Shown here: piece by piece, positions 18,101 to 53,821 of the stretch
Numbering within the stretch: position 1 is the first letter of the stretch
How the letters are laid out: each line of letters opens with the position of its first letter
From: Candidatus Danuiimicrobium aquiferis
GTDB lineage: Bacteria > Omnitrophota > Omnitrophia > Omnitrophales > Danuiimicrobiaceae
Reading direction: 5' to 3'
Length of the DNA: 64,000 nucleotides
Assembly: GCA_001804285.1 (NCBI GenBank)
Contig: MHFR01000053.1
Location: 79,857-143,856, forward strand
Made by a program: the position numbers and the translations under genes
Notes under the pieces: generated by a model
Seen by the model: the letters and a program-made list of their open reading frames with translations, nothing else
Databases searched by the model: none
Told to the model about the DNA's origin: nothing

Positions 18101-19778
18101 CTCTCAATTCTTTTTCGAGCGCTTCAAGTTCGTCAAACAACTTCGTCCCTTTAATCGAAGAAAGTGTCCGCGCATGTTTCGCCGTCGGTTTTAAAATATC
18201 CGGGATATACGCATCGAATCCGTATTTCCTCGATAGCTCCTCAACGCGGTCAACGAGCGCGCCTTGTTTGATCTGCCCGATTTTATACATTTGAATCATT
18301 TGGCCGGTCGTGATTTGTTCGGCTTTCGGAAGTTTCGGAAGGATTTTCGTCTCAAATCCGCGGATAAAATAATTCATCGCCACGTCAAAACCTTCGTCTT
18401 GAAAACGTTTTTCGTTTTCTTCGGCAGTCAGGATCTTGGAAAGTTCGGGATAGGCAGTAGAAAAACCCCTTACATCTCCTCCCCCTTTGTGGGGGAGTCC
18501 TCCTAACATCCGCCAAAATACGCGTCGGACTCGCCGCGCTGTTTGGCGAGAATTGGCGGATCCGCCATCCTGTTGGGCGGAGACTAAGGTGGGGGGTAAT
18601 GTCCTATTATCACCCCCATCCTTTCCTTCCCCCATCAAGGGAGAAGGAAACCTCAAAGAAAAGGGGACAGGTTCTGGTTCAATGGAGTCAAAACCTGTCC
18701 CCTTTTCTGCCTTCCATAACCGCTCCAGGCCTTTCGCATATGTCATCAAATCGATTTCGTCTGTTTTGAATTTTTTTTGGGAATGAATGAATTCCACAAT
18801 TGGGTTGGCCTGTAAAACCCCCTCACCCCAACCCTCTCCCCGAGGGAGAGGGTTAGGGTGAGGGTGAGGGCCTTTTCCCTTTTGATTTTTTTCTTCTAAT
18901 CTTTTCTCCAATTCCGCTTCCACCCTGTCCAGTTCCCTTAAAATCTCCGGCTCGTTCCTGGACGCTTCCAAGAACGCTTTCTTGTTTTCCTCGTATAGCT
19001 TCTTCTCCTCGATTCCGTAATAGCTCGAGTCAAATTCTTCATTAAGAATAGATGCCATTTCACCGCCGGAAAGTTCACCGCGCCCGACATATTCTTTCAC
19101 TACTTTCTGTTTTAATTCCTGATCGGGAAATGATTTGAAATAAAGGCTGTCCAATCGGCCGGCACCGCCTTCGAGGAGCGTAGGGGCGGGTTTGAAACCC
19201 GCCCCTACAAGCAGTTTCTGGATTTCCCGGATGATTTTCGAAATATTCGTTTCCGAATCATAATTCGTATGCGCATCCTGGAGGTAGAGGATGAGTTTTG
19301 GGGCATCGACAATAGACACTGGGACACTGGTCCCTGGTATGTCCCCGCTTGCTGTCATTCCCGCATGCTTCAGGTGGGAATCTATGCGTCTGGATGAAGA
19401 AAAGGGGACAGGTTCTGGTTCAATGGAGTCAGAACCTGTCCCCTTTTCTTTCTCTGATGACTGGTGACTGATGACTGACGACTTCTTTCCCGGCACAAAC
19501 GATTCCACAAGACTGCCGAGCTCTTCAGGAAGGCTGAGTGAATCAATGATTTCTCGAGGATTCACTTCCTTAATCCCGTGGCGAGGGTAGGCGCCTTCAA
19601 GAAGAGACTCGGCATAAACTGAACGACTCGGAGTAAATGTAAAATTGGTAAGGGTAAAGGTAATGACAAGAATAATGGCAATCAAGCGACGGCAAATCAG
19701 TATACTTTTATCTGATGTATTGGCCACGGGATTTCCTTTAAAACTGTTTACAACAGTTTGTAAAAGTATACATGGCAT
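1..19778 (-). CDS. Giant multidomain secreted/membrane-associated protein. The 5' start is in the window and the 3' end lies beyond position 1. About 6,590 codons are inside the window.
   Basis: Reverse-complement translation in the frame of ATG 19776-19778 shows no stop codon down to position 3. An alternative GTG start at 19725-19727 is preceded by AAGGAAA. The track has no minus-strand Met-ORF fragments in this frame. Recognisable catalytic motifs are spread over the whole length, all in this frame. The gene is absent from the ORF track because it runs off the window edge. Confidence 0.8.
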   Translation of the reverse strand, partial: MPCILLQTVVNSFKGNPVANTSDKSILICRRLIAIILVITFTLTNFTFTPSRSVYAESLLEGAYPRHGIKEVNPREIIDSLSLPEELGSLVESFVPGKKSSVISHQSSEKEKGTGSDSIEPEPVPFSSSRRIDSHLKHAGMTASGDIPGTSVPVSIVDAPKLILYLQDAHTNYDSETNISKIIREIQKLLVGAGFKPAPTLLEGGAGRLDSLYFKSFPDQELKQKVVKEYVGRGELSGGEMASILNEEFDSSYYGIEEKKLYEENKKAFLEASRNEPEILRELDRVEAELEKRLEEKNQKGKGPHPHPNPLPRGEGWGEGVLQANPIVEFIHSQKKFKTDEIDLMTYAKGLERLWKAEKGTGFDSIEPEPVPFSLRFPSPLMGEGKDGGDNRTLPPTLVSAQQDGGSANSRQTARRVRRVFWRMLGGLPHKGGGDVRGFSTAYPELSKILTAEENEKRFQDEGFDVAMNYFIRGFETKILPKLPKAEQITTGQMIQMYKIGQIKQGALVDRVEELSRKYGFDAYIPDILKPTAKHARTLSSIKGTKLFDELEALEKELREFLPKTAEEKELVSGFYDLELFRDFAKLEITHEQWKEVKPLVAGHQSPEKDSASLRRGYSVIPAKAGIRLDPRLHGDDKNPKTIFALQHPPFFTPVTSDVVSSDLVTLFQPHFRFYELALERDEVLFQNVIKTMDRQNAKIAVIVTGGFHSEGIKEKMKSAGISYALIAPKISEIGTKENYMNVMRGNMSYMKYFKGSLWDALAKDYAAKMAASLKTEELTPSLKRWRDRIIQNSIAEGRVTEAGSYTRYVDALVQILRKEQEGGAGDAGQGSLSSPNALIGDLQSLDSRFRGNDNDLRQALERELKSFNSNYFGKLKALMSKKIEVLGEGLKDMWKSGKIDAESVGSLVSRVNGVSNSNLATALALVPDMQGVIEQTAEPAELSFEEIQAKAKELEKLPAQTLLDRLAVYEQFLDARQTLVGDDAVIRKIEAETKGLPYQQIKEVLKIARQRAKQRNLASIMGTGSASTKPEPVPDSVFAGRAEARVTAKQVKVQLETIIANPKNDTPLTAAHVDAVLNLIQAGQVKLSGEMIDVVTQADEVLGSLDRNLAHLYYGPNGVVQVKAKNDGSEGKQLLHRVANAFVRTPDGNFIMLERTNKDPAQRTANIYGGHVSEDFRYDQAIKKELVEELGFPAGYVLKGKWERIGHDGEFSAARAKDQEKKTIYIYHATPEEVAMIQKTKETLDASLSEGEVNHFQSLDKQQTDETGKTTGRGEIWKIFFVPQQSLLTQLDDINAGPTLRHFLNQPKIRDAIQARAEAMISGTAEPRVGEVANSVTAPNSLLADRMRTVEGLLKMSLLVEDGRLTANQTRYGSTSVDMLQEAFQQLSDRYGNLSGKHLLDMGSGPNLIVSLVAHVVFGMEVTAVEIDPAFHRDGQFLYDRAVEAGIIAPLRFHYSEAPQDAFQVPWSDKDFVMFYYTQPGDEENLARTKRMIKQFRRQFTDKMIEFAGHTKLVMVFNEAFMGSGLRIDQFEKLRNLNPFDPPIMDSQQESSYVRIYEPASADTKTAAIAARTEARADLAAFARGIQTLLVAPETPERMEILKMVAVEAPDAANPIGTGENRMIDMLLASSPDTAEDLLRRTFSFTESGQQVLKQEKTVQALYDLLFNQLNLLEIDGDQISLSVNGQSILKNKNRVLKRLEIAAALAEEEKQSNPAAVLAAQILNEVHFILEDASLSLLPAFENDTNEIQFIDHNSDIVDGNFSAAPAAENFYCRAIQKLPRSEFRSEQRFEKNNSQANLIKTTGAPSLTDLTAQPRTEARTSDQGGWKIGEVDNQFLFDRVNDFLGFERDRLKGLRPNTFVDYIETPSGELVGAHRYEYAVDPKKPEHVIAKGQIHSARSFPIELAGRSTTVANELAIRFLERFVTMGLTEVQINSVTEQGRKLWRYHTARVVSSIDTVDGKKLYTMVINLDEWQKKQTSRSELREGQVQQTARSESRTTVAESPSIIVTPKDRFKQLIDTLVPETERDQYKNAALRANEVRLREIIEYMSWPQRDFTHRLSHIWKAATNMRYFGFEKKALSPEDRARYEELKPKGAQAIDYGRMLLQTISSVNTETHFQPEYIDDLIVLIEVTKQAIREAEQFGEAVLTLMKKYQIQSEENDQLYIDWTERALDETKRFADTLERLETGQRLPQEEELNILLNWARREPYVRMTWEIGLDSGLAVMDLDVLLTNLIQNARDAKKAGQDDFEIQISATFELSEEGKQSIRLVAKDNGKGMSADVLRQIRSGIPLTTKGALGRGQGLQNVRAVIGKYNGVLEIDSGEVINPETGKKEKSTTFAISIPVKIPAIAPFKLVEGAETRATEAVRSEARNLESGSHQVLIGTRESTLADKMLAKRAEVRNSVIPAKAGIQLDPHFRGDDINASETEAPVPADYPLNIQNVTQANQLAEEGKLEAARDLYDQILKNSQLFGIESADVLSRLRARLDELVRLVGEKDSLSDQTPGVTWQGRLSPLHRDMIARVEELRRQQGKSKNDLLVIADYGIGKKGAPTTFDLARSLRDSGYGNVVMIGFDNNRQYIDSARKQLSKETLPGIQMEFALADAFHVNEGLKNAGRADLVGKVDMVIVANVLIDGIYTKYYTAEDAKKAIPRLGQILSENGFVVRATGPMERDVSKKVEYQLYDSNGTEIANGISYPDRELDAKVAELVKEIQTLQQDRLDEFQKKLDYFLKAYFSGGQQIDRRAQILNALKEKFGQALSGISPAIMAALSSAESGSQGALKTMSDSRLAERMTVAQVAADQMIDRIKKANEADLISIEAELRELVKEGGALRGEEANDQKAEILRALVEKFGDQLSEIAPAIEDILTSCSSCAVDYAKRAQELKDRAAAGENVATEAREVAENLKSEIGAALAAGLSLPQMGIETSGVLDQLIAGYLALDGIEGLDVKLKTELQTQLTALRTQMAREKAAQLERIFANIEKIADRQATKTRGENWDWPGAEAKYKELIEYYQSTGRGEDAARVERKLKGLRAHVQLEILLNTYNTMPVDELAKELESLVQIATNMEDEYRNQLMRAIDFLSGRNKTVYHVSGIDKSKIVEGGEIVIYPGVANAFGEGVYASQVPLLSYDGGEGLQLPTGDIIVFSFEINPDAEKHIGADPNAIYVNVHTNEHAIRLKNLKLREVSADELKKIGAIGMENARKNGKKVYLVEAEEVKFDSGYQTSGDYERFMAENEIIKELNELEADKDEATYDEMVRKIAERGLSDSNRIKAVLEKVFSAEIAAREMLERIRQAEESDLPELEAELGLLVGARGELRGEKHNDLKAQILNEMIERFGSRLTDVAPAIAEILTSCSSCAVNYANRASDLAKRAGQGEDVHGEVLDIAQSLKTEIEAALKAGLTLSQMGIQNLNMFGQLERGYQALMTLLDGDKDFILRAALDDQLSQLIDMPEHDRYMAPRLKGRSPQEREIGRPMKDIEQDLEKRNWYWHGLTDEAKDEVRGRIEIIRERLPAFLRKKIGHKILAINVKGSYIWGPGTIAGFDHYNAQDMDILIIVEDNIEESVDIHLTDEEKREIFGDSDWQTGKLEIKVMGAGKAKPSAQFNNEMNRMISAKHSGVLLFGEDYFENISTQNFALKKLFDLLGAALIEYGKFLSARLSEKDGALLAQYRQLKIEYADLYEESKTQIEQVISALEARMKAQRLAHLRIMKRLFEIGLAAEFLVRTLTPERLAQFRKATDFGPHRFAPHLAGVTLSQFLTKGVPESVFEHAQELEELIVEDPGQIMDSFLAMYLNALKDYVGDQTADQATQGIIGKIEHSDELSRSEVRAELSALVSEGGPLHGAERNDYKAKILEALLRKFGSQLNEIAPEIVAILTSCSACAVDYAKRAQALKDRAAAGENVQKEAVDVGRNLRDEIDAALTAGLNLEQMGIENADMFGQLIAGYEALPSLIPADEDPNLKAALQEQSDRLREMFREVLPAAPATQTAGRRSEVRKTGEEIAVPSTEKFAEGTRQPAEKRQIPKKQPRMVVHGDVHGELDGLKEDLRQAGLIDENGNWIGGDAVFVQVGDVIDRGPKSKEAIEFLRRLKRQAQQAGGDVVRLIGNHELMLLEGMLGDDDALFMWWRNLPTEQRAVFEEFRDDPQRFRAAIREVYGEIVDQMLEDIMNDHLKAAEQLHGEVFTHAGARSKIRKQLIKEIAQKLGIDPSQVTEKQIADHINEILKQAISGKNFSHAIFGEDGIFWNRGVMDSVDAGKMRQIFGHTPEADSPVVASPNASRVNVDVGLYERYGGGRGFLEIDSDGNLVAHRKNQAGEWEKESLGNKDGGVEEKSSTAEATKTAEVVLPLASQNRTQSNPETARKMERMLEGLLAAALALQGKTVSEGDLRDIEKLLNELQQQTIEANDPQVAFAWAVINFIRVAQSRGDLTDVREQLHSASNRVAGRYAKKIEEILSAFSSGESISAEYNDLAAKVADDLMSNIQDISLSDFDGYLYVMKHQDLTIWGTLAKIFQVIIKALEKYPEPSKAFGTTMAEQRKILEAIRRELVKKLADQAKSKAGPLPGSTKTDVVAPVKTSSVAAMPAQKEMRDEPENPLHPRGSLTEPTPELDENKGREVNELDLDSLKPGDQVLIRSSTHDLEYVLERTADGRFKVWMRGRPGGYYLVHPENIQVLGKLSIGKMFFMPYYNWYPSDGALMPARIGQDWGSEAVKILVFPNSEMVPADAGGRSEVPGAGTSRVLQGAQFDGDDRTTKRRDELIAQGVKKTQAANQAIEEARQSGIELLRGLQKGDRIEDGESGNRYEFDGRDLILLDDDGRKIDSAVKSVYGIKRSAEGRAVKDGQGHFVFEFAPDGSAVSLGMRARVLTEVQETGPQAAQTPLDERSEARIMAMPGAGPLGADMVRAELQAAAGILFDMIDDLDFIDGVSGNELRAGGYRYQLARHPQTGELVIIIASDQAGALGVLSAQTQAELDRIHGFLNILIAAQALVARTPALKNDPAALAQAIKSLSPVTHTASDLAPPASSKSASASSTLQTKPATQIPSQQITVREAINVRTRMKKINQDGLRASKQLSRMTPRERVRLIAHTMLNREPSETEIDVFQGCEIGVQKLSEFPEIGADFLKANGIRDHYAGYIHLTAEAVLYLRENGVFQTSSTQGFMNDPGTYGPLRIQTLDGTQENYFRAVGSYAFLTQNINHPGGRIERPMKKTEFHESIHHRAGGKTDQPSIERPDVDEMNGLEELQAYFGMNLRANGTVDTNFGNASLDTALGYVRPDQKDGARQAIQAVRRLAQILPGRDVYHIIGRTRSFGELGVLADRTRSEIREMFRPGFSDSEIDHAIQFGFDRPGELAVENIRTEIENGVYLRHDTDDPVRLQRFANHYIGLVLGYLLSQAGPAESRLLQELFDINQKANPRLYEAVRSGLKQWFGFSDTETVDDQILWDRVAEEFRKSAAQTRTELFDEARLTGGVSRPVAVAGTRNEMRSIPVESSTAPDEALRPLPGPRSSEAHLPPVAASTPSGGALGSRSGAWSDEVEKQVKAGQPALQNAGWKALFSGWLQLIAGAVDFAEYFSDENPNHQYTIPFVHQNSGTIREIQGTERRALEQIQSKIKEEIGKNTSQYRDQIVRRYNHTEFQNFLNRLLSHPGLVKVSSGEKFKLVWRMLAMSPADLRDQNFENLLGRFAKLDDQNFTARNIKTTIQAFVEEIHNVKIMEDGIIRSPVDPNVSLPVRAKPLKAVAATGNEMMPEQLIDENDILAALEEIREIEEEEDSVIPASTQQTGESAVLMGGKAGISAKGGSAFGGQLLDPRVHGDDTKFRAEARSVAPTPQGDDLYLDDKELSAFSPASSRAEARLEFGMPGQESIKAGDLSSIRSKVRVSRAEARSPVQDMPPAEVRKMMVGLIMHQFKTLIDGAETSILALIRSHSIGNHDNDNKLLTNLKTNIQLARDFISEFDPILKERRIWIARYGEFNKIFSIFNTLGISEKEKLRALSPEETAYLEKLINFTALHQKLSEQLLKFETLVGDLGVFLEGRNVLTEDHDLFKRAKDLVKSVGWIVEEIKTPVAARAEVRAEFSGSALKTYRYELINMTGEELRREAIRTLRFGSLAEKDRENLTKLLRSLRAREDILYARRADGIYRGARGVDWSLPQKNWVIDILVRARRNEILLQVRSEVRGMGSWFGLGETKDIEGIPSRNDLKTILANESVYLVENVKPGDPAFLILISPTLTLPLDLISGVEKARWKDYLEKLLSQTPLTFADQQFWKNAAGVILPGVTVSKDYFEAIAKEAGITAAKLREVLGIPEDTGKMIALSTQLRKAQHPHRMLMEEVFHVLENDAFSQEIKAMPDRDKGTAGLIIETVNDFLQLMFTSPFAYDQIYSEYTDWSDTEKLALQKRYLVDKDFDPNRNIRGILNELLNDIRQGESVESVLVTDLLLRGVTESGSKAILIQYLNVLLGREKFSQYQKDKDLFPDFSTQKIRETIQTYARSETREEEWLRQETEKRIYEEKTPDEIVKFYEKLKRNKKFMQALKRNDLEGVEDALASKKLGLGAFVFSIFSMFGLLVVGIYTSVLTVMFAMVDI
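2309..2443. repeat. Composite MITE-like palindromic element inside the giant ORF (GTCATCCCCGTG..CGGGGATC + GGCGGATCCGCC...TTGTTGGGTGGA + CGCGGGAATGAC)
   Basis: Terminal inverted repeats GTCATCCCCG / CGGGAATGAC. It translates in-frame as ...DSVIPASTQQTGESAVLMGGKAGISAKGGSAFGGQLLDPRVHGDD. Confidence 0.75.
6850..7690 (-). other. PPP-family (calcineurin-like) Ser/Thr metallophosphatase domain (giant protein)
   Basis: MVVHGDVHGELDGL...VFVQVGDVIDRGPKS...VRLIGNHELMLL gives the GDxHG, GDxxDRG and GNHE signature triad. Later IFGHTP resembles the conserved His region. Confidence 0.75.
7925..8310 (-). repeat. Intragenic protein-module repeat, copy C (ELSALVSEGGPLHGAERNDYKAKILEALLRKFGSQLNEIAPEIVAILTSCSACAVDYAKRAQALKDRAAAGENV...MGIENADMFGQLIAGYEAL)
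   Basis: About 85 percent nucleotide identity to copies at 9497..9870 and 10950..11320. For example, 8058..8170 and 11088..11200 are nearly identical. Confidence 0.8.
8950..9300 (-). other. Pol-beta-like nucleotidyltransferase domain (giant protein)
   Basis: ILAINVKGSYIWGPGTIAGFDHYNAQDMDILIIVED matches the GS...[DE]xD minimal NTase motif, with a helical region after it. Confidence 0.5.
9497..9870 (-). repeat. Intragenic protein-module repeat, copy B (...KAQILNEMIERFGSRLTDVAPAIAEILTSCSSCAVNYANRA...)
   Basis: Same module with the conserved LTSCSSCAV and MGI..L..GY motifs. Confidence 0.8.
10950..11320 (-). repeat. Intragenic protein-module repeat, copy A (...KAEILRALVEKFGDQLSEIAPAIEDILTSCSSCAVDYAKRAQELKDRAAAGENV...)
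   Basis: Same module as copies B and C. Confidence 0.8.
11330..11560 (-). repeat. Partial, Cys-less copy of the same module (RRAQILNALKEKFGQALSGISPAIMAALSSAES...)
   Basis: Matches the first half of the module. TSCSSC is replaced by LSSAES. Confidence 0.5.
11750..12170 (-). other. Second Rossmann/MTase-like domain (giant protein)
   Basis: DLLVIADYGIGKKGAPTTFDLARSLRDSGYGNVVMIGFDNN...ADLVGKVDMVIVANVL resembles a glycine-rich loop, an acidic beta2 end and a hydrophobic beta4. Confidence 0.35.
12501..12556. repeat. MITE-like element (GTCATCCCCACGAAAGTGGGGATC-CAACTGG-ATTCCCGCCTTCGCGGGAATGAC) in-frame in the giant ORF
   Basis: Two hairpins flanked by GTCAT/ATGAC. It translates as SVIPAKAGIQLDPHFRGDD. 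Confidence 0.8.
12740..13100 (-). other. GHKL / HATPase_c (histidine-kinase-like ATPase) domain (giant protein)
   Basis: N-box LDVLLTNLIQNARDA, G1 box VAKDNGKGM, G2-like GALGRGQGLQNV, and a C-terminal TTFAISIPV strand. Confidence 0.65.
13450..13620 (-). other. Possible DHp/H-box-like segment upstream of the HATPase domain
   Basis: Segment REIIEYMSWPQRDFTHRLSHIWKAATNMRYF contains a His in a helical context about 150 aa before the N-box. It diverges from the canonical H-E-L-R-x-P-L. Confidence 0.25.
15200..15660 (-). other. Class I SAM-dependent methyltransferase-like domain (giant protein)
   Basis: Motif I-like HLLDMGSGPNLIVSLVAHVVFGMEVTAVEIDP is followed by an acidic residue at the end of beta2 and a hydrophobic beta4 region (DFVMFYY). 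Confidence 0.5.
16070..16400 (-). other. NUDIX hydrolase-like domain (giant protein)
   Basis: Translation is QLLHRVANAFVRTPDGNFIMLERT...GGHVSEDFRYDQAIKKELVEELGFPAGY. KELVEELGF fits the Nudix box REuxEExGu with R->K, and the spacing to the upstream G is near consensus. Confidence 0.5.
16660..16720. repeat. Degenerate copy of the GGGGACAGGTTCTG...CAGAACCTGTCCCC element in-frame in the giant ORF
   Basis: Sequence is cGGGGACAGGTTCTGGTTTCGTTGATGCAGAACCTGTCCCCa, translating as IMGTGSASTKPEPVPDS. Confidence 0.6.
17217..17280. repeat. MITE-like element (GTCATTCCCGCGAAAGCGGGAATCCAGAG...ATCCCCGATTAAAGCATTCGGGGATGAC) in-frame in the giant ORF
   Basis: Same family as 12501..12556. Confidence 0.8.
17868..17923. 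repeat. MITE-like element (GTCATCCCCGTGCAAACGGGGATCCAGCCGGATTCCCGCTTTCGCGGGAATGAC) in-frame in the giant ORF
   Basis: Same family. It translates as SVIPAKAGIRLDPRLHGDD. Confidence 0.8.
18470..18875. repeat. Cluster of at least five different palindromic elements, all in-frame inside the giant ORF: CCCCC-TTTGTGGGGG; GGCGGATCCGCC...TTGGGCGGAG; CCTTCCCCCATCAAGGGAGAAGG; GGGGACAGGTTCTGG...AAACCTGTCCCC at 18656..18708; CCTCACCCCAACCCTCTCCCCGAGGGAGAGGGTTAGGGTGAGGG at 18828..18870
   Basis: Each has a paralog elsewhere in the window (26735..26830, 21178..21350, 25056..25102, 25592..25686). The encoded peptide is low-complexity: ...GKGPHPHPNPLPRGEGWGEG...AEKGTGFDSIEPEPVPFSLRFPSPLMGEGKDGGDN... Confidence 0.8.
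19354..19447. repeat. GTCATTCCCGCATGCTTCAGGTGGGAATC element plus a GGGGACAGGTTCTGGTTCAATGGAGTCAGAACCTGTCCCC element, in-frame near the 5' end of the giant ORF
   Basis: It translates as ...SEKEKGTGSDSIEPEPVPFSSSRRIDSHLKHAGMTA. Confidence 0.75.
19600..19727 (-). other. N-terminal signal peptide or signal anchor of the giant protein
   Basis: From the GTG start the protein begins MANTSDKSILICRRLIAIILVITFTLTNFTFTPSRSVYA/ES. This is a basic n-region, a ~20-residue hydrophobic core and a VYA-E cleavage-like site. Confidence 0.5.
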
Positions 19779-19949: not shown

Positions 19950-21155
19950 TTATTTCCTAAAGTTTTCTATCACGATAGAGGCGTTTCTTAAAAGCTGCCT
20001 GCGAGTTGCACGCGAAATAGCGGAGTCGGAAAACTTCTCTTTATATTCTCGATTGGTTTTGATGGCAAGTAACTCATTCAAATCAAGGCGGGAACCGGCA
20101 CCGGAAGTCGCTTTAAATTCTTTCCAGCGGGTTTCTTTCTGCTTCGACGTGTAAGGACAAACTTCCAAACACCGGTCGCACCCGAATATCCGGTCACCGA
20201 TCTTGGGCTTCAATTCTTCGGGAATCTCATTTTTATGCTCAATCGTAAGGTAAGCAATGCATTTACGCGCATCCATCGATTTATTTTCTCCGATAGCGCC
20301 TGTCGGGCATTGATCAATACATTTTCTGCACCGGCCGCAATTTCCTTCGATTGGCCGATCGGGTTCCAGCTGAAGATTCGTCACAATTTCCGCTAAAAAC
20401 AACCACGGCCCGAATTCCGGGGAAATAAGCTGAGACTGCCGTCCGATAAATCCAAGCCCGGCTTCGACGGCCAAGGAACGTTCGAGAAGCGGCTTTGTGT
20501 CTACGCATGTTTCCAAATGAATATTCTTGGTTTGCAGCGAACAGGCATGCCTGTTCGCTGCTACGACATTTTTAATTTTCCCAATCAATTTATTTAATTT
20601 TTCCGAAATGATTTTATGATAATCTTTTCCCCATGCGTAACGGGCGACACGGCCGGATGGCACCATGTTCGTAGGGGCAGACCCATGTGTCTGCCCTGTA
20701 CTGCTGTCATCAAAAAAAGGGGACAGGTTCTGGTATAGCGGCATCAGAACCTGTCCCCTTTTTTTGTCAGAACTCGGGCGAACACCTGCCTCGCCGGCAG
20801 GCGGGCGCGGGGTCGCCCCTACAGTCGCCCCCCCCGTCCAATAATTCACCCCGAGAACAATCACATTTTTTGCATCCGGAAACTCTTTGAAAAATTTTTT
20901 CTGCCGCTCCGGATATTCTTCAAGATAATGCATTCCACCGTGCTTCCCTTGGCGAATCCATTCTTTAAGATAAGATTCTTCCGCAACAAGCATCCCCTCA
21001 CCCCCCGCCTGCCCGCCTGCCGGCGAGGCAGGGAATTTCCCCTCTCCCTTAGGGAGAGGGTTAGGGTGAGGGGAAATATTAATATTTGTGATTCCGCAAG
21101 CGTCGAATCCGGTATCAAGTGCGAGAGATTTGATTTGACGGGAGGTGATACTCAT
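19950..21155 (-). CDS. queG: Epoxyqueuosine reductase QueG, carrying two in-frame MITE insertions
   Basis: GMHYLEEY and RYAWGKDYH signatures. CGRCRKCIDQCP and CDRCLEVCP [4Fe-4S] motifs. Insertions encode NISPHPNPLPKGEGKFPASPAGGQAGGEG and GGATVGATPRPPAGEAGVRPSSDKKRGQVLMPLYQNLSPFF. Confidence 0.85.
   Translation of the reverse strand: MSITSRQIKSLALDTGFDACGITNINISPHPNPLPKGEGKFPASPAGGQAGGEGMLVAEESYLKEWIRQGKHGGMHYLEEYPERQKKFFKEFPDAKNVIVLGVNYWTGGATVGATPRPPAGEAGVRPSSDKKRGQVLMPLYQNLSPFFDDSSTGQTHGSAPTNMVPSGRVARYAWGKDYHKIISEKLNKLIGKIKNVVAANRHACSLQTKNIHLETCVDTKPLLERSLAVEAGLGFIGRQSQLISPEFGPWLFLAEIVTNLQLEPDRPIEGNCGRCRKCIDQCPTGAIGENKSMDARKCIAYLTIEHKNEIPEELKPKIGDRIFGCDRCLEVCPYTSKQKETRWKEFKATSGAGSRLDLNELLAIKTNREYKEKFSDSAISRATRRQLLRNASIVIENFRK
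20712..20870. repeat. GGGGACAGGTTCTGGTATAGCGGCATCAGAACCTGTCCCC element plus a CCTGCCTCGCCGGCAGGCGGG palindrome, in-frame inside queG
   Basis: Palindromic repeat-family members. They encode about 50 extra residues between the QueG GVNYW and RYAWGKDYH motifs. Confidence 0.75.
20994..21072. repeat. CCTGCCCGCCTGCCGGCGAGGCAGGG palindrome plus CCTCTCCCTTAGGGAGAGGGTTAGGGTGAGGGG element, in-frame inside queG
   Basis: Same families as 18828..18870 and 25592..25686. Confidence 0.75.
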
Positions 21156-21177: not shown

Positions 21178-21350
21178 ATCCTCCGCCAAAAAAAGTGGTC
21201 GGATCCGCCAACGCTTTAGTGGCGGACAATGACCAAGGAATTTTCAAATCACAAATCTCAAATATTGGGAGTTTGTGAATTAGGATTTCTTTGGACCTTG
21301 TCCGCCACAATGCACGGCGGATCCGCCATTTTGTTGGGTGGAGGATTTGG
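21178..21350. repeat. Intergenic repeat block (GGCGGATCCGCC...TTTAGTGGCGGACAATGACC ... GGCGGATCCGCCATTTTGTTGGGTGGAGG)
   Basis: The GGCGGATCCGCC(A)TTTTGTTGGGTGGA motif also occurs at 2345..2440, 18540..18600 and 34180..34240. Confidence 0.65.
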
Positions 21351-23907: not shown

Positions 23908-23975
23908 GTCATTCCCGCGAAAGCGGGAATCCAGAGAAAATGCTGGATGCCCGCTTGAAGCGTGCGGGCATGACA
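23908..23975. repeat. MITE-like element GTCATTCCCGCGAAAGCGGGAATCCAGAG...GGATGCCCGCTTGAAGCGTGCGGGCATGACAC immediately upstream of polX
   Basis: Same family as 17217..17280. Confidence 0.75.
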
Positions 23976-24910: not shown

Positions 24911-24938
24911 GAATCGGTTTTAAGAAGTTTCTAAAAAA

Positions 24939-24972
24939 GGACAAGCCGTTAATGGCTTGTCCTTTTTTATTT
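24939..24972 (+). terminator. Rho-independent terminator
   Basis: GGACAAGCC-GTTAAT-GGCTTGTCC hairpin followed by TTTTTTATTTT. Confidence 0.7.
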
Positions 24973-25055
24973 TACTCAGCTTTTTAAATACACAAGAGCA
25001 CAGGGACGCAAGAATTTCTTTACCCTGTGCGCTGGTGCCCATACGTGCTGAAAGG

Positions 25056-25102
25056 AAAAGGGGACAGGTTCTGGTTAATGGAGTCAGAACCTGTCCCCTT
25101 TT
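25056..25102. repeat. GGGGACAGGTTCTGGTTAATGGAGTCAGAACCTGTCCCC element, flanked upstream by GTGC(A/T)C(A/T)AG-type arms
   Basis: Near-identical to 19399..19447. Confidence 0.8.
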
Positions 25103-25108
25103 CTATTG

Positions 25109-25492
25109 TCACGCTGATGTTTGAATAAGTCGTGCGTTTTTATACTTGGAAATTAAAAAAGACAAATCTGCTTCCCCTGCCGCATTCGCCCTCGCAGCGG
25201 CATCATTTGGTCCTCGCCGCAACTGCGAGGACAGGTCGCCCGCATTGATTAATGCCTGCTTTGGCATTCTCAAATCGTTGCGGGCTTCCGCAAGGCTTGC
25301 CTGATGTTCTGAAGAATCCGCATTTAAAAGAAAATTTACCTGACCGGAGGGAATTTTAAGAAGGGTTCCCATATTAGGAATGGTTGCAAGCGTTGTCAAT
25401 GAATTGCTATCTTTTGAAGTCAGCATAGCAGAAAAAATCGTCAAACCGGCTATGATCACAAGAACCCTAAAAAAACGATTGCCCGTGCCCAT
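25109..25492 (-). CDS. Hypothetical membrane-anchored protein
   Basis: ORF with an N-terminal hydrophobic helix. No recognisable motif. Confidence 0.4.
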   Translation of the reverse strand: MGTGNRFFRVLVIIAGLTIFSAMLTSKDSNSLTTLATIPNMGTLLKIPSGQVNFLLNADSSEHQASLAEARNDLRMPKQALINAGDLSSQLRRGPNDAAARANAAGEADLSFLISKYKNARLIQTSA

Positions 25493-25591: not shown

Positions 25592-25686
25592 AACCCCTCA
25601 CCCCTGCCCTCTCCGCTTCGCTACAAGGACTGCCTGTAAGAGTTTGGACTGCCCTCTCCCCGAAGGGAGAGGGTTAGGGTGAGGGA
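25592..25686. repeat. CCCCTCACCCCTGCCCTCTCC ... CCCTCTCCCCGAAGGGAGAGGGTTAGGGTGAGGG palindromic element
   Basis: Family shared with 18828..18870, 20994..21072 and 30614..30636. Confidence 0.75.
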
Positions 25687-25698
25687 AATTTAAGAAAC

Positions 25699-26076
25699 CT
25701 AAACTTCCGGAATCATTGTTTCGGGCGCGCAAAGAGGCTTCCAATCCCGCCCGGCCGGAGTATAAAACGTAAACAGATCAAAAAGCCCGGCAAAAAGTTG
25801 ACGGCCCGTGTCATACACTCCGGTCGCGAGCCCGACGGTCGGGCCTTTCCATGTCGCTAAATAAAAAGGCTCCGTTTCCGCACTGATTTGAATCACATCT
25901 TTAAAAACTTGGAACGGACTTCCGATCATATAGACAATCCCTCTGGAAAATTTATGAAGAGGACCTTTCGTCTCTGAAAGCTGATTTGAAAGTTGATCGG
26001 CATACGCACTGGACAGGAAAAAGAAAAACGTTAAAACAAGGACACCCACGAACCTCATGTTTTTCATCTGAATCAT
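25699..26076 (-). CDS. Small secreted protein, paralog-like to the 24425..24910 product (TIGR04073-like)
   Basis: Signal peptide followed by HKFSRGIVYMI...G....G...G.....G..DL.TF.TP. Confidence 0.45.
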   Translation of the reverse strand: MIQMKNMRFVGVLVLTFFFFLSSAYADQLSNQLSETKGPLHKFSRGIVYMIGSPFQVFKDVIQISAETEPFYLATWKGPTVGLATGVYDTGRQLFAGLFDLFTFYTPAGRDWKPLCAPETMIPEV

Positions 26077-26734: not shown

Positions 26735-26893
26735 TCCCTCCCCTTCGATGGGGGAGGTGAAGGTGGGGGTGATATTTAAGAATTCTCCCCCCATCCTCAC
26801 CTTCCCCCCTTGTGGGGGAAGGAAATTCGCGCATTCAACTTACGCTTCTCCGCCTTAGGCGGACAAGCGTAAGTTGAGCGCTCATTTGACTTT
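26735..26893. repeat. Two palindromic elements in the greA/queF divergent intergenic region: CCCCTTCGATGGGGGAGG...CCCCCCTTGTGGGGGAAGG, and TTCGCGCATTCAACTTACG...CGTAAGTTGAGCGCTCATTTGACTTT
   Basis: The second element recurs at 34236..34285. The first family recurs at 18470..18500 and 32215..32250. Confidence 0.7.
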
Positions 26894-27325: not shown

Positions 27326-28492
27326 TTACTGCCTTCTGCCTACCGGTTCCCGGTTTTCCCGATACGAACTATCCACCTTCACCGGTTTAAAGCCGGCGCG
27401 TTCGATCGATGAAATCAATTTTTTCTCATTTAAATCCAGTGGAACTTGACTTCCGGCTTCATGCATCACTTTCTCGTTCAAATTTGTTCCTCCGAAATCA
27501 TCAGCTCCGAATGCAAGTGCGACTTCAGCAAGTTTTAAATTAAACGCCGGCCAGTGAACTTTGATGTGAGGAATATTGTCGAAAAGAAGCCGCGAAACGG
27601 CAAATACTTTTAAATCCGTAAATCCGCCCGGTGTATCAATTTCTCCGAGCCGCGAATTTTTCGGATTGTATGGCATGGGAATAAACGCCTGAAACCCTTT
27701 TGTTTCGTCCTGAAGTTTCCGCAATCTTAAAATATGATCCACTCGATCCTTGGCCGATTCCAGATGCCCATAAAGCATCGCGCAGTTTGAAGGGATGCCG
27801 ATTCTGTGTGCGGTTTTATGAATCTCGAGCCATCGGGTGCTATTTGTTTTATGAGCGCAAATTTTTTGTCTGATCGCTTCATCAAATATTTCCGCCCCGC
27901 CGCCCGGGAGCGCGCCAAGCCCTGCGGACCGGAGCCGGACGAGAACTTCTTTGCAGGTTAAATCGGACCGCCGCGATAAATCATCAATTTCAACAGCGGT
28001 GAGCGCTTTAATCAAAACGGCCGGAGCGGCTTCGTGAATCGTACGAAACATTTCCAAGAAATAGTCAAAGTTTAAATCCGGATTCAATCCGCCGACAATA
28101 TGGACTTCATTAATTCGATATTTCTCATACGCTTGTTTTACCCGGTCCCTAATTTCCGGGATCGAAAACTGGTAGCCGCCCGCTTCACCGGGTTTGCGGG
28201 AAAACGCACAAAAGGAACAATGGGCCGTACAAATATTGGTGTAATTTAAATGTAAGTTAATCGAATAATAAACTCTCTTGCCGTGCAACCGCTCACGAAC
28301 GCGGTTGGCGAGAAAACCGAGAGAGTTGAGGTCGTTTGATTGAAATAGCCGGACGCCGTCCTCGAATGTCAGGCGCTCGTTGTTTTCGAGCCGGATTTGA
28401 ATGTCGTGAAGGTCTGCACCAAAAAAGGGGACAGGTTCTGCTTCAACGGAGTCAGAGCCTGTCCCCTTTTTTGCCCCTGTGCTCTTATGCAC
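27326..28492 (-). CDS. Radical SAM enzyme of the MqnC/MqnE family (futalosine-pathway menaquinone biosynthesis). The true start is uncertain.
   Basis: NYTNICTAHCSFCAF gives the CxxxCxFC cluster motif, and the overall length fits. The N-terminal 20-25 residues of the track ORF (KKGTGSDSVEAEPVPFF) are encoded by a MITE at 28421..28471. Confidence 0.7.
   Translation of the reverse strand: MHKSTGAKKGTGSDSVEAEPVPFFGADLHDIQIRLENNERLTFEDGVRLFQSNDLNSLGFLANRVRERLHGKRVYYSINLHLNYTNICTAHCSFCAFSRKPGEAGGYQFSIPEIRDRVKQAYEKYRINEVHIVGGLNPDLNFDYFLEMFRTIHEAAPAVLIKALTAVEIDDLSRRSDLTCKEVLVRLRSAGLGALPGGGAEIFDEAIRQKICAHKTNSTRWLEIHKTAHRIGIPSNCAMLYGHLESAKDRVDHILRLRKLQDETKGFQAFIPMPYNPKNSRLGEIDTPGGFTDLKVFAVSRLLFDNIPHIKVHWPAFNLKLAEVALAFGADDFGGTNLNEKVMHEAGSQVPLDLNEKKLISSIERAGFKPVKVDSSYRENREPVGRRQ
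28421..28471. repeat. GGGGACAGGTTCTGCTTCAACGGAGTCAGAGCCTGTCCCC element, followed by a GTGCTCTTATGCACTTGTGCTCCTGTGC arm
   Basis: Same family as 19399..19447. Confidence 0.8.
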
Positions 28493-30542: not shown

Positions 30543-32065
<1,523 letters not shown>

Positions 32066-32254
32066 TTAATTTCGGGACGGTTCAATCGTAACCTCATTGA
32101 TCGCAATGGGTTATGGAAAATCATCCCCGCATTTGAAGATGTTCCTTGTTTTGAAAGTGTACTAAATCGTGCGGAATCTGTCTATCTTTTCCTAATGTAT
32201 GTAGGAATTGAGGATCAAATTTTCTTCCCCCCTCTGTGGGGGAAGAATAGTATC

Positions 32255-32392
32255 TGTTTAGCGTTCTGAAGTGGCGAACACGCCAAGTTCGTGTCATGCC
32301 CGCATGCTTAAAGCGGGCATCCACAGTTTCTGGAAAAAGGGGACAGGTTCTGATCCTATTAAGTCAGAACCTGTCCCCTTTTTATATCGGGT
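32255..32392. repeat. 75-nt repeat TTTAGCGTTCTGAAGTGGCGAACACGCCAAGTTCGTGTCATGCCCGCATGCTTAAAGCGGGCATCCACAGTTTCTGGA, plus a GGGGACAGGTTCTGATCCTATTAAGTCAGAACCTGTCCCC element
   Basis: The 75-nt unit is almost identical to 53596..53675. Confidence 0.8.
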
Positions 32393-32397: not shown

Positions 32398-34092
32398 TTA
32401 GCTCGCTTTTACAAAACGCATCCGGTATTCTTCGTACCGCTTGGAATCAACATTGTCTTCAATTAGTTGTTTTGTAAACGAAAAAAAAGTGGGTTCGATT
32501 TCTTTTAAACTTTTTGCCAGATTTTTTTCAAGCAGCGCTTTTTCGGCTTTCACATCATATTCCGGCCCTTGTTTTCGAATTTCACGGATAAAATTAAGAA
32601 ATCGATCCCGATATTCGCTATGCAACAGAAAATAAATAAATACCCAGCTTTCCGCATACGTCAAATTGGCATACTTCGGATCAAGTTCATGGAGGCCGAT
32701 GCCCCGGTCAAAATTCATAATGTACTCAAGCGGAAGCAATTCACTCTTTTCAAGCTCATACTTGAGCTGAATCAAACGTTCTTCATGCGGATCTCCGATC
32801 GGATCCGTTTCGCAGTAAACGGCAAGTCCCTCAATGAGCCAGCCGCCTTGGTAAATTTCGAAAGGGGTAATTCCGAATAAATGGAATAGCTGATGAGCCC
32901 CTTCATGACGGATGACCTTCCCGGTCCGGTTCCGTGCTTCGCTCAAAATCCGGAGTTCAGTCTTCTCTGCCTGAGTAGCCGCGCGATCCACTTCGCCCAT
33001 TTGGCTCCCCGCTGTCAGATTTTTCATCATGCCGGCCATTTGCACCTGAAACCCTTTGTTTTGAGATAAAGCCGCCATAATATCCCGGTCCGTCTTTGCA
33101 TTATAAAACACAAGTTTTTTTGCCTTAAACTCATAAAAACCAATCGGGTTACTTCTAATATGAATGTTCAGCTCGGTCAGCATATCGTCAAATTCTTTAC
33201 GGGTACCGAAAATAATAACATCCAGCGCCTCCGGCTGTTTTGTCAAGTCAATCAGGTCAAAAAAATTGCGGACGAAATCCTGATAAAATAAATCCAGGGA
33301 TTTTAAATATAATTTGAGTTCAACCGGATCTTTTTCAGACGCGAGAATCTGATAAAGCCCTTTGTGCCTGAACTCAAAACCCGGGTGACTTTCCTGGAAA
33401 ACTTTTAAACTTTCCCGAATCTCAGAAGCCGGCTTCCACAGAAAAAATTTTTCGATCCGGTCCATATCCAGCGTCAGAACCACCGAACCGCCTTCTTCAA
33501 GCTTTTGACGAACCTCAATTGAATCTCCCTCTTTTTTCACGATATGCCCGCCGATTTTTTCTCCGTTCTTCAAAACCAAAACCTGTTCCGCGCCCGTCGG
33601 CCAATCGTCGTCAGCTTCCTTTTCACGATTGGGGAGATAAATTCCGCTTTTCTCGGCGACAACGTTTCCCTGCAAAATATTCCTCTCGATATCTTGAATC
33701 TCAGATTTTGAAAAGCCGACAATTCCGTCTTTTAATTGCATCCTGATTTTTCCCCGATACTCCTCAACAAGTTTCCCCTCAACGATTCCTCCATTTTTGA
33801 GTGTCAGCCTGTCTACAACGAGCGGGGTGACTGGAACCGGAGATGTTGGTGTTTCGGCGGTAACTGTTTTGGGTGCACTTTTCTGTAAGTTTTTATTTAG
33901 AAATGGAATCCGGTCGCAACCGGAAAGGGTAAAGAGCACAAAGGTGCACAAGAGCACAAGTCGGAAAAAGGGGACAGGTTCTGACTTAACGGAATCAGAA
34001 CCTGTCCCCTTTTTCCGCAGTATATCGTATGCCGTGTTACTCATTTGCATATTCCCTTTTTTTTGCCGCCTTTGTTCCCAACACCATGTCAT
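32398..34092 (-). CDS. Putative lipoprotein with an HExxH motif (candidate zinc metallopeptidase). The start is uncertain.
   Basis: Lipobox-like LFTLSGC after a hydrophobic stretch, and VIRHEGAHQLFH. The N-terminal KKGTGSDSVKSEPVPFF is MITE-encoded (33965..34013). Confidence 0.5.
   Translation of the reverse strand: MTWCWEQRRQKKGNMQMSNTAYDILRKKGTGSDSVKSEPVPFFRLVLLCTFVLFTLSGCDRIPFLNKNLQKSAPKTVTAETPTSPVPVTPLVVDRLTLKNGGIVEGKLVEEYRGKIRMQLKDGIVGFSKSEIQDIERNILQGNVVAEKSGIYLPNREKEADDDWPTGAEQVLVLKNGEKIGGHIVKKEGDSIEVRQKLEEGGSVVLTLDMDRIEKFFLWKPASEIRESLKVFQESHPGFEFRHKGLYQILASEKDPVELKLYLKSLDLFYQDFVRNFFDLIDLTKQPEALDVIIFGTRKEFDDMLTELNIHIRSNPIGFYEFKAKKLVFYNAKTDRDIMAALSQNKGFQVQMAGMMKNLTAGSQMGEVDRAATQAEKTELRILSEARNRTGKVIRHEGAHQLFHLFGITPFEIYQGGWLIEGLAVYCETDPIGDPHEERLIQLKYELEKSELLPLEYIMNFDRGIGLHELDPKYANLTYAESWVFIYFLLHSEYRDRFLNFIREIRKQGPEYDVKAEKALLEKNLAKSLKEIEPTFFSFTKQLIEDNVDSKRYEEYRMRFVKAS
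33965..34013. repeat. GGGGACAGGTTCTGACTTAACGGAATCAGAACCTGTCCCC element, with upstream arm GAGCACAAAGGTGCACAAGAGCACAAG
   Basis: Same family as 19399..19447. Confidence 0.8.
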
Positions 34093-34285
34093 TCCCGCAT
34101 GCTTTCCCTCGGTAAATCGAGGGCCGGCCCTGTATTTCCAGGGAGGCGGGAATCTCTATTTATAAATCCCCGCCAAGAACATGCAGGGATCTCCGCCACA
34201 AATCATTGGCGGATCCGTCCGCGCTGTATGGCGGAAAATTCGCGCATTCAACTTACGTTCCATAAGTTGAGCGCTCATTTGACTT
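34088..34285. repeat. Block of GTCATTCCCGCATGC...GCGGGAATC, GGCGGATCCG, and TTCGCGCATTCAACTTACG...ATAAGTTGAGCGCTCATTTGACTTT elements
   Basis: Matches 26824..26893 and the other family members. Confidence 0.7.
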
Positions 34286-34672
34286 TTTCATCATCCTTTA
34301 ATCACACCGATTGGCCGCATCCGGACGACACGTTTTGCAATACCGGCCTCATTTACAACTTCGACCACATCGCTGACATCTTTATAGGCCAGCATTTTGA
34401 TTCAGATCAAATTGACTTGAATTAAATCTTACCATAGCCGAATCGTTGACTCATAATAGACCTTGCCGAAACCCGGAGGGAGTTTTACATGCGTCCAACT
34501 TCAAAAAATACAGTAATGCCTTAATTAAGTATTGTGTCCCAAGTATCATACATTACACAACTAATGACTGATAAGATTTCTCTTTCAATGCTATCGGTAG
34601 AATAATAGAATGTGAATTGTAAATTAAAAGATTGCTTTAATATCCCATAAAGAAAATTAGCCTTAGGAATCA

Positions 34673-44263: not shown

Positions 44264-44354
44264 GTCATTCCCGCAAGCTTCTAGCGGGAATCTAAGAACC
44301 ATTTTCGCCACCATTCGTGGCTGAGATTCCCGACAAAGGCATTCGGGAATGACA
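44264..44354. repeat. MITE-like element GTCATTCCCGCAAGCTTCTAGCGGGAATC...GAGATTCCCGACAAAGGCATTCGGGAATGACAG
   Basis: Family with GTCAT/ATGAC termini. This is the first repeat copy after about 10 kb of repeat-free sequence. Confidence 0.75.
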
Positions 44355-47081: not shown

Positions 47082-47151
47082 GTCATCCCCGCACGTTTTA
47101 AGTGAGAATCCACGATCAATAGATTCCCGCCTAAAGCTTGCGGGAATGACA
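47082..47151. repeat. MITE-like element GTCATCCCCGCACG...GAGAATCC...AGATTCCCGCCTAAAGCTTGCGGGAATGACAG in the pilin promoter region
   Basis: Same family. Confidence 0.75.
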
Positions 47152-53076: not shown

Positions 53077-53637
53077 TCACTTTGTTACCTTCGCAGTCGC
53101 CGCATCCAATTCAAAAAGGCGAAGGGTTTCGCTTACTCCATTTATTATAATATCGACTTCATTCTTACGAATTTGAGTAACAATAATGCCATTCTTTTCT
53201 TCATTCTTACTGTAAATTTCTCCGTTAATAATCGCCTTCGCCCCTTTGTTGGACATGCTGACGCCCTCAAGAACTGCGCTGGATGCGGATTTTACTCTTT
53301 TCTCGCTTTTCACCTCAACCGGAATGGGAGCCGTTGGTAGGTTCGATTCAAAAGGATCGCGAATTTGATCCAATTGATCTGCCGGTTGATTTGGAACTGC
53401 CGTTTTTTCTTTAGATTCGGGTGAAAGCAGAGGTTTCGCGATTGATGTTTGTTCCGATAGCGGCGGTTGTTCCAATGTTTCCGGAAGCTTTGTTTCGTCA
53501 GAAGATTGACTATAGAGAAGGGGCGCAAAAAGGAAGAAAAAAAGAATAGCGTAGAGTGTGTAGCGTATAGCGCAGAGCGTAGAGCCTTTGTGTCTATTTA
53601 GCGTTTTGAAGTGGCGAACACGCCATGTTCGTGTCAT
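53077..53637 (-). CDS. PilP-like pilus assembly lipoprotein. The start is uncertain.
   Basis: C-terminal beta domain NKGAKAIINGEIYSKNEEKNGIIVTQI...ETLRLFEL. The track ORF 53077..53808 extends through MITE sequence, and the first plausible Met is at 53637. Confidence 0.45.
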   Translation of the reverse strand: MTRTWRVRHFKTLNRHKGSTLCAIRYTLYAILFFFLFAPLLYSQSSDETKLPETLEQPPLSEQTSIAKPLLSPESKEKTAVPNQPADQLDQIRDPFESNLPTAPIPVEVKSEKRVKSASSAVLEGVSMSNKGAKAIINGEIYSKNEEKNGIIVTQIRKNEVDIIINGVSETLRLFELDAATAKVTK

Positions 53638-53697
53638 GCCCGCATGCTTAAAGCGGGCATCCACAGTTTCTGGATTCCCGCTTTCGCGGGAATGACA
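53596..53697. repeat. 75-nt repeat (TTTAGCGTTTTGAAGTGGCGAACACGCCATGTTCGTGTCATGCCCGCATGCTTAAAGCGGGCATCCACAGTTTCTGGA) plus ATTCCCGCTTTCGCGGGAATGAC
   Basis: Near-identical to 32255..32328. Confidence 0.8.
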
Positions 53698-53821
53698 AAA
53701 AAACAGATGCTCTTTTACAGATAATCGCTTCAAAGCGCTAAACAAATACGAGCGTTTAGCGTGTAGCGTATATTGAATTTTATTGGTCATGTAAATATTT
53801 TTTGCCATTGAGAAGGTTGCG

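Follow-up and report, generated by a model that had tools for sequence, protein, structure and literature searches.

In contig MHFR01000053.1 of Candidatus Danuiimicrobium aquiferis (Omnitrophota), a spacer of 344 nt separates a DUF1570 lipoprotein gene (minus strand, stop codon at 32398) from thiC, which starts at 32053, and it contains an interval, 32255-32392, that is filled with short palindromic repeats. The question is what kind of DNA these repeats are and what they do to the genes around them. We analyzed the whole 64,000-nt stretch in which the interval lies (the window; all positions refer to it). The original prediction, made from the letters alone, had described at least six families of such repeats, listed as A to F, as resembling miniature transposable elements with inverted repeats (MITEs) that create fake N-termini of open reading frames (ORFs). 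We are fairly confident of a different answer, namely, that this Omnitrophota genome has been colonized by several families of repetitive extragenic palindromic (REP)-type hairpins, which would have spread with the help of a Y1 transposase and whose survivors inside genes are in frame.

Discrete hairpin families in the window

Self-BLAST of the window returned 33 repeat intervals covering 1,627 nt, and all motifs named in the original prediction were located. A tolerant hairpin search found 33 hairpins scoring 10 or more, against 1 to 5 in each of five shuffles. Folded as single-stranded DNA, families A, B, C, and D and a set of GTAG-tagged palindromes reached z values of -5 to -10, the double hairpin of family E being the sole weak folder (z = -1.4). 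Hairpin density is about 8-fold greater in non-coding DNA, which makes up 7.5% of the window, and about half of the element copies are intragenic. Rfam searches, at the gathering threshold and with permissive E values, gave chance matches to microRNA models only and no known RNA family. The self-BLAST, the hairpin excess, and alignments with sharp termini bear out the view that several discrete palindromic families reside side by side. Families A to E stood, with 9 copies of A (at least 9 had been claimed); family B (at least 12 claimed) has 19 clean units, to which a degenerate one at 47082 can be added. Family F, at one or two copies, is weak or marginal as a family, and the GTAG palindromes and some other units had not been listed.

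The interval in question turned out to be a composite. A 75-nt unit at 32257-32331, recovered by self-BLAST with a second copy at 53597-53671 (the duplication had been placed at 32255 and 53596), encloses a single B unit (32293-32320). Directly after it comes an intergenic A hairpin, 32334-32383, of the form AAAAAGGGGACAGGTTCTGA-N10-TCAGAACCTGTCCCCTTTTT, which begins 15 nt past the DUF1570 stop codon and is terminator-shaped, with A5 and T5 tracts. An F-like hairpin (32222-32247) lies just upstream, and the 75-nt unit itself is 92 to 97% identical to a stretch of another genome (L112:32-93). The concatenation of elements that had been noted at 30543-30691 and 34088-34285 was also recovered. 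At the former site, half of a C element and a B unit (30543-30570) lie upstream of an A variant; at the latter, a plus-strand B unit (34088-34153), whose loop holds a nested 47-nt insertion, is followed by an E-type hairpin (34192-34213) and a D element (34236-34286). Elements are, in addition, nested in the hairpin loops of others: E in B (2374-2438), hairpins in B (34088-34153), and an E-type hairpin in D (26835-26877).

Family B occupies 12 loci, seven or eight of which are head-to-head dimers of the form TGTCAT..ATGACA. All 19 clean units carry the tag TGTC and an 8-bp stem that begins with AT; this stem is fully paired in 17 of the 19, and six compensatory stem variants occur. The loop is 4 nt long in 8 units and 9 nt long in 9, with nested inserts in the other 2, and its sequence is either GAAA or the 9-nt one. 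The tail is CCA or CCG in 10 of the 19 units and CT-N in the others. The CGTC-type REPs described by Di Nocera, De Gregorio and Rocco (2013, PMC3733652) have a CGTC tag that is often TGTC or CCTC, an 8- to 9-bp stem with complementary A/T in its first two positions, a 4- to 5-nt loop, and a short unpaired tail near CCA, and they mostly form head-to-head dimers. Judged by its sequence, family B is a CGTC-type REP: its tag, stem, and dimers agree with the description, and so do the loop and tail of about half the units; unlike in the published elements, the loop of the other half is 9 nt long rather than 4 to 5 nt. The GTAG palindromes appear to fit the other REP superfamily, the GTAG-type REPs, which are repeated families with a GTAG tag at one end of a 5- to 13-bp stem (PMC3733652). 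There are only four GTAG-tagged palindromes in 64 kb, their stems (8 to 9 bp, or 9 to 13 bp with the tag paired) differ from each other, and the tag lies within the stem (GTAG..CTAC), unlike in the published GTAG-type REPs. GTAG-type REPs also go together with a RAYT gene that has the REP on its flanks, and no RAYT gene was found in the window.

Family A and RayT-type transposases

The 9 aligned copies of family A have sharp termini and nearly invariant 14-bp stems with variable loops. All of them carry GGGGACAG, which, like the 12-bp core GGGGACAGGTTC, fits the motif GGGGWSAS; a RayT gene serving these copies would be expected between GGGGACAGGTTCTG arms. The same motif is shared by the inverted repeats that flank RayT-like "TIRYT" genes, in units known as TIRtrons (PMC3733652). 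The core (GGGGACAGGTTC / GAACCTGTCCCC) is conserved across phyla in the middle of hairpins with stems of about 30 bp (loci L002-L110 and L116-L119), and the outer and inner stem parts around it are genome-specific and mutually similar. In a scan of one genome per species, hairpins built around it were present in multiple copies in Clostridia, Bacilli, Bacteroidota, Saganbacteria, proteobacterial metagenome-assembled genomes (MAGs), and Planctomycetia, and in other phyla it is always the center of a longer, genome-specific stem. An Omnitrophota-type variant, with A/T tracts and a TCTG..CAGA extension, is rare elsewhere, with 5 loci in the metagenome scan. In the literature, a text search for the core brought up unrelated primers and nothing else.

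In six of six loci (L076, L074, L014, L116, L118, and L119), a Y1_Tnp gene is flanked by or embedded in A-type inverted repeats. Three of these loci came from the scan for the A core and three from the protein side (Pelosinus, an Actinobacteria MAG, and a JGI metagenome), and the transposase family at A-type loci is annotated as RayT. Because a Y1_Tnp gene lies between A-type arms at all six loci, the multi-copy A hairpin can be read as two transposase-flanking arms joined by a short loop. Family A appears, then, to be a "gene-less" hairpin, consisting of the two inverted repeats of RayT/TIRYT-type HUH tyrosine transposase genes. The likeness to TIRtrons extends from the core GGGGACAG to the Y1_Tnp gene between A-type arms in six genomes; the difference is that no such gene was seen in this window. 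Tying family A to a RayT-type clade, with a 12-bp recognition core found across Firmicutes, Bacteroidota, Actinobacteria, and others, would provide a concrete candidate enzyme. As a minor observation, the loop can be oriented in four or five A copies, and all of these are "+", as are all four single B units. Strand-specific insertion by a transposase acting on single strands would give such a bias; there are too few copies, however, and the direction of the elements cannot be separated from that of the genes.

With its A and T tracts, which are part of the palindrome, family A also has the shape of a bidirectional intrinsic terminator. A G+C-rich stem and a T tract are present in 8 of the 9 copies; a terminator scan, which allows loops of no more than 8 nt, for that reason flagged only some of the A copies. 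The distance to a stop codon is 0 to 15 nt for three copies that are clearly intergenic: the one in the composite interval, one between convergent genes (25055-25103), 6 nt past the stop of ORF 25109..25492, and a variant (GGGGACAGGCACTT) at 30639-30691 that overlaps the thiC stop codon. A fourth (28420-28473), possibly coding, lies 35 nt past the ispG stop. Five or six of the nine copies are intragenic or stand where a gene begins. Near the copy at 25055, another terminator-shaped hairpin (24932-24969, TAAAAAAGGACAAGCC-gttaat-GGCTTGTCCTTTTTTA) is located 22 nt past the stop of a plus-strand gene ending at 24910, and each of the two convergent genes has a hairpin of its own.

Positions 9950-31155 could be compared with ENA scaffold_141 (sample ERZ28563660), a separately deposited record whose reads may not be independent. 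The two are 99.97% identical and colinear over 21,206 nt, with no gaps, and the proposal that the repeats drive rearrangement finds no support in these 21.2 kb. All six nucleotide differences fall within 42 nt (20771-20812), in or beside a GTAG hairpin of queG: five are inside the hairpin at 20776-20822, and the sixth (20771) is 5 nt outside it. They alter four residues of a QueG insert and none elsewhere. This clustering would fit gene conversion between repeat copies or strain or population heterogeneity.

One explanation for such data is that the elements are host-selected signals (terminators, mRNA 3' stabilizers, or protein-binding sites) that were multiplied by selection or gene conversion, with the intragenic copies as by-products. 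The bidirectional-terminator shape of A, the intergenic A copies near stops, the conserved stems with drifting loops, and the six differences clustered in 42 nt, as gene conversion would give, speak for it. However, selection leaves unexplained the nested insertions, the copies in enzymes that are described below, and the presence of the same families in an otherwise dissimilar genome, and it does not explain why RayT genes are embedded in A-type hairpins elsewhere. At the DNA level, the contigs of metagenome Ga0156235 have the repeat families alone in common with the window. We consider this origin of the elements unlikely, keeping in mind that selection and transposition are not exclusive.

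Element copies inside genes

A single open frame runs on the minus strand from 19784 to the left edge of the window (19.8 kb). It holds the 5' part, about two-thirds, of a giant gene (1-19727, minus strand) that has 9,320 codons in the sister assembly. The giant protein has an N-terminal signal or transmembrane segment and many enzyme-like modules, and its N-terminal ~1,000 residues strongly match more than 400 representative proteins (E values up to 1e-30), the listed ones being no longer than about 7,900 residues. At least 13 elements are inserted in this gene (A three times, B at five loci, E three times, C, and one GTAG palindrome), and none brings in a stop codon. When the first ~1,000 residues were compared with those of ten orthologues, every element there was seen to be an insertion, and the orthologues have other repeat-like peptides at matching linker positions.

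The three A copies of the giant gene (16674-16713, 18657-18708, and 19397-19450) are read as MGTGSASTKPEPVPD, EKGTGFDSIEPEPVPFS, and EKGTGSDSIEPEPVPFS; the second belongs to a multi-element insert of about 80 residues, and the third has a DNA folding energy of -23.9 kcal/mol (z = -8.9). A C palindrome (18820-18864, read as PHPHPNPLPRGEGWGEG) forms a 25-residue insert without counterpart in the 10 orthologues, and the GTAG-tagged palindrome (19180-19208) is read VGAGFKPAPT. Family B is represented by a head-to-head dimer (12500-12555, read as SVIPAKAGIQLDPHFRGDD), a dimer in the opposite orientation (17217-17281, read as LSSPNALIGDLQSLDSRFRGNDND), a further dimer (17867-17922, read as SVIPAKAGIRLDPRLHGDD), a single plus-strand unit (19354-19381, read SHLKHAGMT), and a dimer at 2310-2438, in which E-type hairpins are nested in a B loop and in the spacer and which is read SVIPA[..]AGIS[..]LLDPRVHGDD.

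The neighboring gene queG (TIGR00276; 19950-21155, minus strand) encodes only 401 residues and has six elements at three insertion sites; homologues of its product bear the name Candidatus Omnitrophica. Near the N-terminus, a C element (21035-21077) and a 22-nt unit, with copies at 20785 and 21011 and belonging to a family absent from the original list, make up a 28-residue insert that is missing from 17 orthologues. After the conserved GVNYY motif come a GTAG-tagged hairpin, an A element, and a second GTAG-tagged hairpin. The hairpin at 20671-20701 (plus strand) is read STGQTHGSAPT and has a 28-nt stretch that is identical in locus L111; the A element (20711-20766), with A7 and T7 tracts, is read in a different frame, as KKRGQVLMPLYQNLSPFF; and the hairpin at 20776-20822 (minus strand) has an inner hairpin nested in it. 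The third site is a 28-nt perfect palindrome (20534-20561) that adds about 9 residues (AANRHACSLQ). Neither the 17 orthologues nor the solved structures 5d08 and 5d6s have the inserts. QueG nevertheless retains every residue that is invariant in its family, and the predicted junction peptide is ...DKKRGQVLMPLYQNLSPFFDD... In the same way, a GTAG..CTAC perfect palindrome of 28 nt (58936-58963) inside the RlmN gene gives 9 extra residues by comparison with the solved structure 6fz6, with the predicted junction peptide ...PLEVGNGRDRSLQAI...

Altogether, about 20 of 20 interior copies preserve the frame and are free of stop codons. Family A is read as KGTGSDS..EPVPF in one frame and as KRGQVLM..LSPFF in another, and B as SVIPAKAGIQLDP..GDD in one orientation and as ..LQSLDSRFRGNDND in the other. 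Since the elements are read in different frames and orientations, the repeating unit is the DNA and not the peptide. Wherever intragenic copies can be compared with orthologues or structures, which is the case for the N-terminal ~1,000 residues of the giant protein, for QueG, and for RlmN, each copy is an insertion relative to these. From the frame and stop statistics we infer that, in the simplest reading, interior copies are translated and disruptive insertions have been purged.

This is difficult to reconcile with the view from which the analysis started, in which the repeats are intergenic and MITE-like and their coding look is an annotation artefact of stop-free frames. Spurious ORFs do exist, as at 33797..34165(+), a GTG codon follows right after the element at the DUF1570 gene, and hairpin density is about 8-fold higher in non-coding DNA. 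Interior copies already contradict this view: some are preceded by thousands of codons of the 19.8-kb frame, others interrupt QueG and RlmN midway, and the sequence on either side is conserved and in the same frame. The peptide KKGTGSDS..EPVPFF had been put down to element A merely lacking stops, and yet the A element is found three times deep in the 19.8-kb frame and once in QueG, in each case in frame and with orthologue-conserved sequence on both sides. Neither does the MITE label hold, as the units are 23 to 56 nt long and have REP-type features, whereas MITEs measure 70 to 300 bp and have terminal inverted repeats and a target-site duplication. No target-site duplications were seen in the aligned flanks of the nine A copies, which diverge at once and for which there is no empty site for comparison. 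Furthermore, the MqnE gene has no canonical start downstream of its element. We regard this explanation as quite improbable.

Alternatively, intragenic elements might escape translation through removal from the mRNA, as with an intron, or through ribosome bypassing of the phage T4 gene 60 type, for which strong hairpins are the type of structure involved. Keeping the frame and avoiding stops in ~20 of 20 interior copies would be needless if the elements were skipped; one and the same element can be read in two or three open frames, and no intron or ribozyme family was matched, which makes this very improbable. Hardly any weight can be given to the last explanation, that these are selected linker peptides or assembly chimeras and not DNA elements: inserts do sit in linkers of a multidomain giant protein and short repeats can mislead assemblers, but identical DNA is also present in spacers that do not code for protein, it is found in either orientation, and its different frames give unrelated peptides (SVIPAKAGIQ.. 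versus ..SRFRGNDND; KGTGSDS.. versus KRGQVLM..), the DNA palindromes can be perfect, and a separately deposited assembly agrees gap-free over 21.2 kb (with the reservation about its reads given above).

Proposed spread and survival of the elements

Colonization by REP-type hairpins would combine these observations as follows. A Y1 (IS200-like/RayT) transposase, with its gene in another part of the genome, would mobilize the elements in the form of single-stranded hairpins. Gene-breaking insertions would be purged, and the survivors would be frame-preserving copies in loops and interdomain linkers, presumably translated as extra segments of 9 to 80 residues. Intergenic copies would persist best just past stop codons, probably as terminators or 3'-end stabilizers.

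Several points weigh against this scheme. Neither the 64-kb window nor five related metagenome loci (L111-L115) yielded a transposase of any kind, and three RayT proteins used as tblastn queries had no match there, so that RayT mobilization in this genome is extrapolated from other phyla. Among about 7,900 proteins recovered with a profile of the RayT clade, the best 120 were Firmicutes-type and none of those 120 was named Omnitrophica. CGTC-type REPs, the class of family B, are without a known dedicated transposase (PMC3733652). There is no presence/absence polymorphism to mark insertion boundaries and target sites, the only close relative available being 99.97% identical without indels. If A is a terminator, it is hard to see why queG should have a perfect terminator-shaped A hairpin halfway along its length. 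The argument for translation of the inserts comes from frame and stop statistics. A structure model of QueG had a mean predicted local distance difference test (pLDDT) score of 55, with about 30 in the inserts, so that a surface-loop location is only suggestive; the model gives a weak hint that the inserts may lie between secondary-structure elements.

Insertion at corresponding places may have happened more than once. Another Omnitrophota MAG has an independent A-type hairpin in the matching QueG loop, with a different stem extension and reading frame, the two species being only ~45% identical (~52% in the multiple alignment), and a third QueG orthologue has B-like palindromes in that loop. 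It is tempting to extend this to a systematic remodeling of Omnitrophota proteomes by REP-type hairpins, in which linkers of giant multi-enzyme proteins and particular loops of housekeeping enzymes are hit repeatedly in independent lineages by the same families; we hold this to be rather doubtful. If true, it would mean structure-targeted insertion, or selfish hairpins that help to build the linkers of giant genes. In a related possibility, intragenic A copies with the shape of a terminator might serve as attenuators whose effect depends on translation.

Relation to known palindromic elements

The window resembles the GTAG/CGTC REPs surveyed by Di Nocera, De Gregorio and Rocco (2013, PMC3733652) in its tagged stem-loops, co-resident families, head-to-head dimers, and 3' preference, REPs in general preferring the position after stop codons, on the 3' side of genes (PMC3733652). 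The same survey equates CGTC-type REPs with Neisseria dRS3 and Rickettsia RPE-4 and RPE-6, and the B dimers resemble REPINs, Neisseria dRS3, and Rickettsia RPE-6. In the REPIN-RAYT system of Pseudomonas and enterobacteria (Bertels and Rainey 2011, PMC3116915), two inverted REPs are mobile together and a single-copy tyrosine transposase is the presumed mobilizer. Those REPINs, essentially extragenic and GTAG-tagged, differ from the dimers of the window, which are CGTC-type. Intragenic GTAG/CGTC REPs are a minority of copies, add 9 to 80 residues, and are most frequent in Opitutus terrae and Rickettsia conorii (PMC3733652). O. terrae is a bacterium of the Planctomycetes-Verrucomicrobia-Chlamydiae (PVC) grouping, to which Omnitrophota are also assigned. 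In contrast to the surveyed cases, among which Omnitrophota were not included, there are ~20 intragenic copies in 64 kb here and six elements in one 401-residue enzyme. In-frame intragenic REPs are thus already known from the Rickettsia elements and from O. terrae, with a mechanism and element classes like those here; what is notable is how densely the elements lie, that one enzyme loop holds a stack of several families, and that giant Omnitrophota genes are among the hosts, which make this a very dense case of palindromic selfish DNA tolerated in coding sequence.

Rickettsia palindromic elements (RPEs), RPE-1 to RPE-8, were reportedly described by Ogata et al. in 2000 as lying in frame in housekeeping genes. 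The presumption for RPEs is that they are translated and that surface loops of the proteins tolerate them. The elements of the window are like them in being palindromic repeats that lie in frame and without disruption in protein-coding genes, the link to family B running only through the description of the CGTC class. RPE-1 differs in its length of ~100 to 150 nt and its intracellular alphaproteobacterial host, and here many families are stacked and nested. A literature search for palindromic repeats in Omnitrophota returned nothing relevant, and the papers on giant Omnitrophota genes that were examined are silent on palindromes and hairpins.

Gene starts and annotation

The claim of fake ORFs held in part. 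ORF 33797..34165(+), which overlaps the DUF1570 gene on the opposite strand, is spurious. Many copies, by contrast, lie inside real genes, and the start of the MqnE gene (27326..28492, TIGR03700) may be real. The A element 28420-28473 occupies codons 8 to 24 of this ORF, and the family profile begins at ORF residue 31 to 34. As no ATG, GTG, or TTG occurs from the element to the start of the profile, the element-bearing start is the only canonical one, and the N-terminus that had been called fake may be genuine. In the DUF1570 gene, an A element (33962-34017) lies immediately upstream of the lipoprotein signal peptide, either as its n-region or in a 5' leader; the start is ambiguous because a GTG codon follows directly after the element, ahead of the signal peptide. 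A B dimer (53633-53696) in the N-terminal part of ORF 53077..53808 itself supplies, with CATGAC, a possible ATG start.

Masking of the repeats before gene calling, as had been recommended, would be harmful because real genes would be split, among them the giant ones that Omnitrophota are known for. It would be better to recognize the elements and to keep coding copies unmasked. Unrecognized repeats yield spurious small ORFs and "hypothetical proteins" made of VIPAKAGIQ, GTGSDS..EPVPF, and GFKPAPT peptides.

Other elements and neighboring genes

Families C (3 full and 2 half copies), D (2 copies), and E (about 6 to 8 TCCGCC..GGCGGA hairpins) are further stem-loop families without a known partner. 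An intergenic C element (25652-25685) lies 14 nt past the stop of ORF 25699..26076. E-type hairpins occupy the nth-queG spacer (21204-21342), with other copies at 2358, 2385, 18561, 26849, and 34192, and the D element at 26823-26893 (plus strand) carries an E-type hairpin in its loop, the copy at 34236-34286 being un-nested. Intergenic B dimers are located 42 nt upstream of the polX start (23908-23974), between divergent genes (44264-44353), and, with the left unit degenerate, between a pilin gene and a type II secretion system F (T2SS-F) gene (47082-47150).

A 65-nt repeat at 8053-8117 and 11083-11147, 94% identical and in the giant gene both times, was rejected as a mobile element, as it looks like a recent internal domain duplication of that gene with a recurring protein module, ..ILTSCSSCAVDYAKRAQ.. 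A 67-nt unit at 2139-2205 and 25226-25292 (85% identical, with GCCCGC..GCGGGC arms), which was not on the original list, has one copy in the giant gene and one in the small ORF 25109..25492, on the coding strand both times, and may be another intragenic element family.

No tRNA genes were found in the window. Between 34000 and 46000, the G+C content falls to 36 to 39%, versus 44 to 50% in the flanks, and genes for an ABC exporter, an asparagine synthase, and several glycosyltransferases are found. This cluster may be a polysaccharide island that was acquired; apart from the B dimer at 44264-44353, it is nearly repeat-free. In a type IV pilus/T2SS-like cluster, the secretion ATPase and secretin genes have between them a gene (50559-50930, minus strand) for a bAvd-like four-helix bundle of 123 residues, a "23S rRNA intervening sequence protein". 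The whole window has a negative GC skew, and nearly all genes are on the minus strand.

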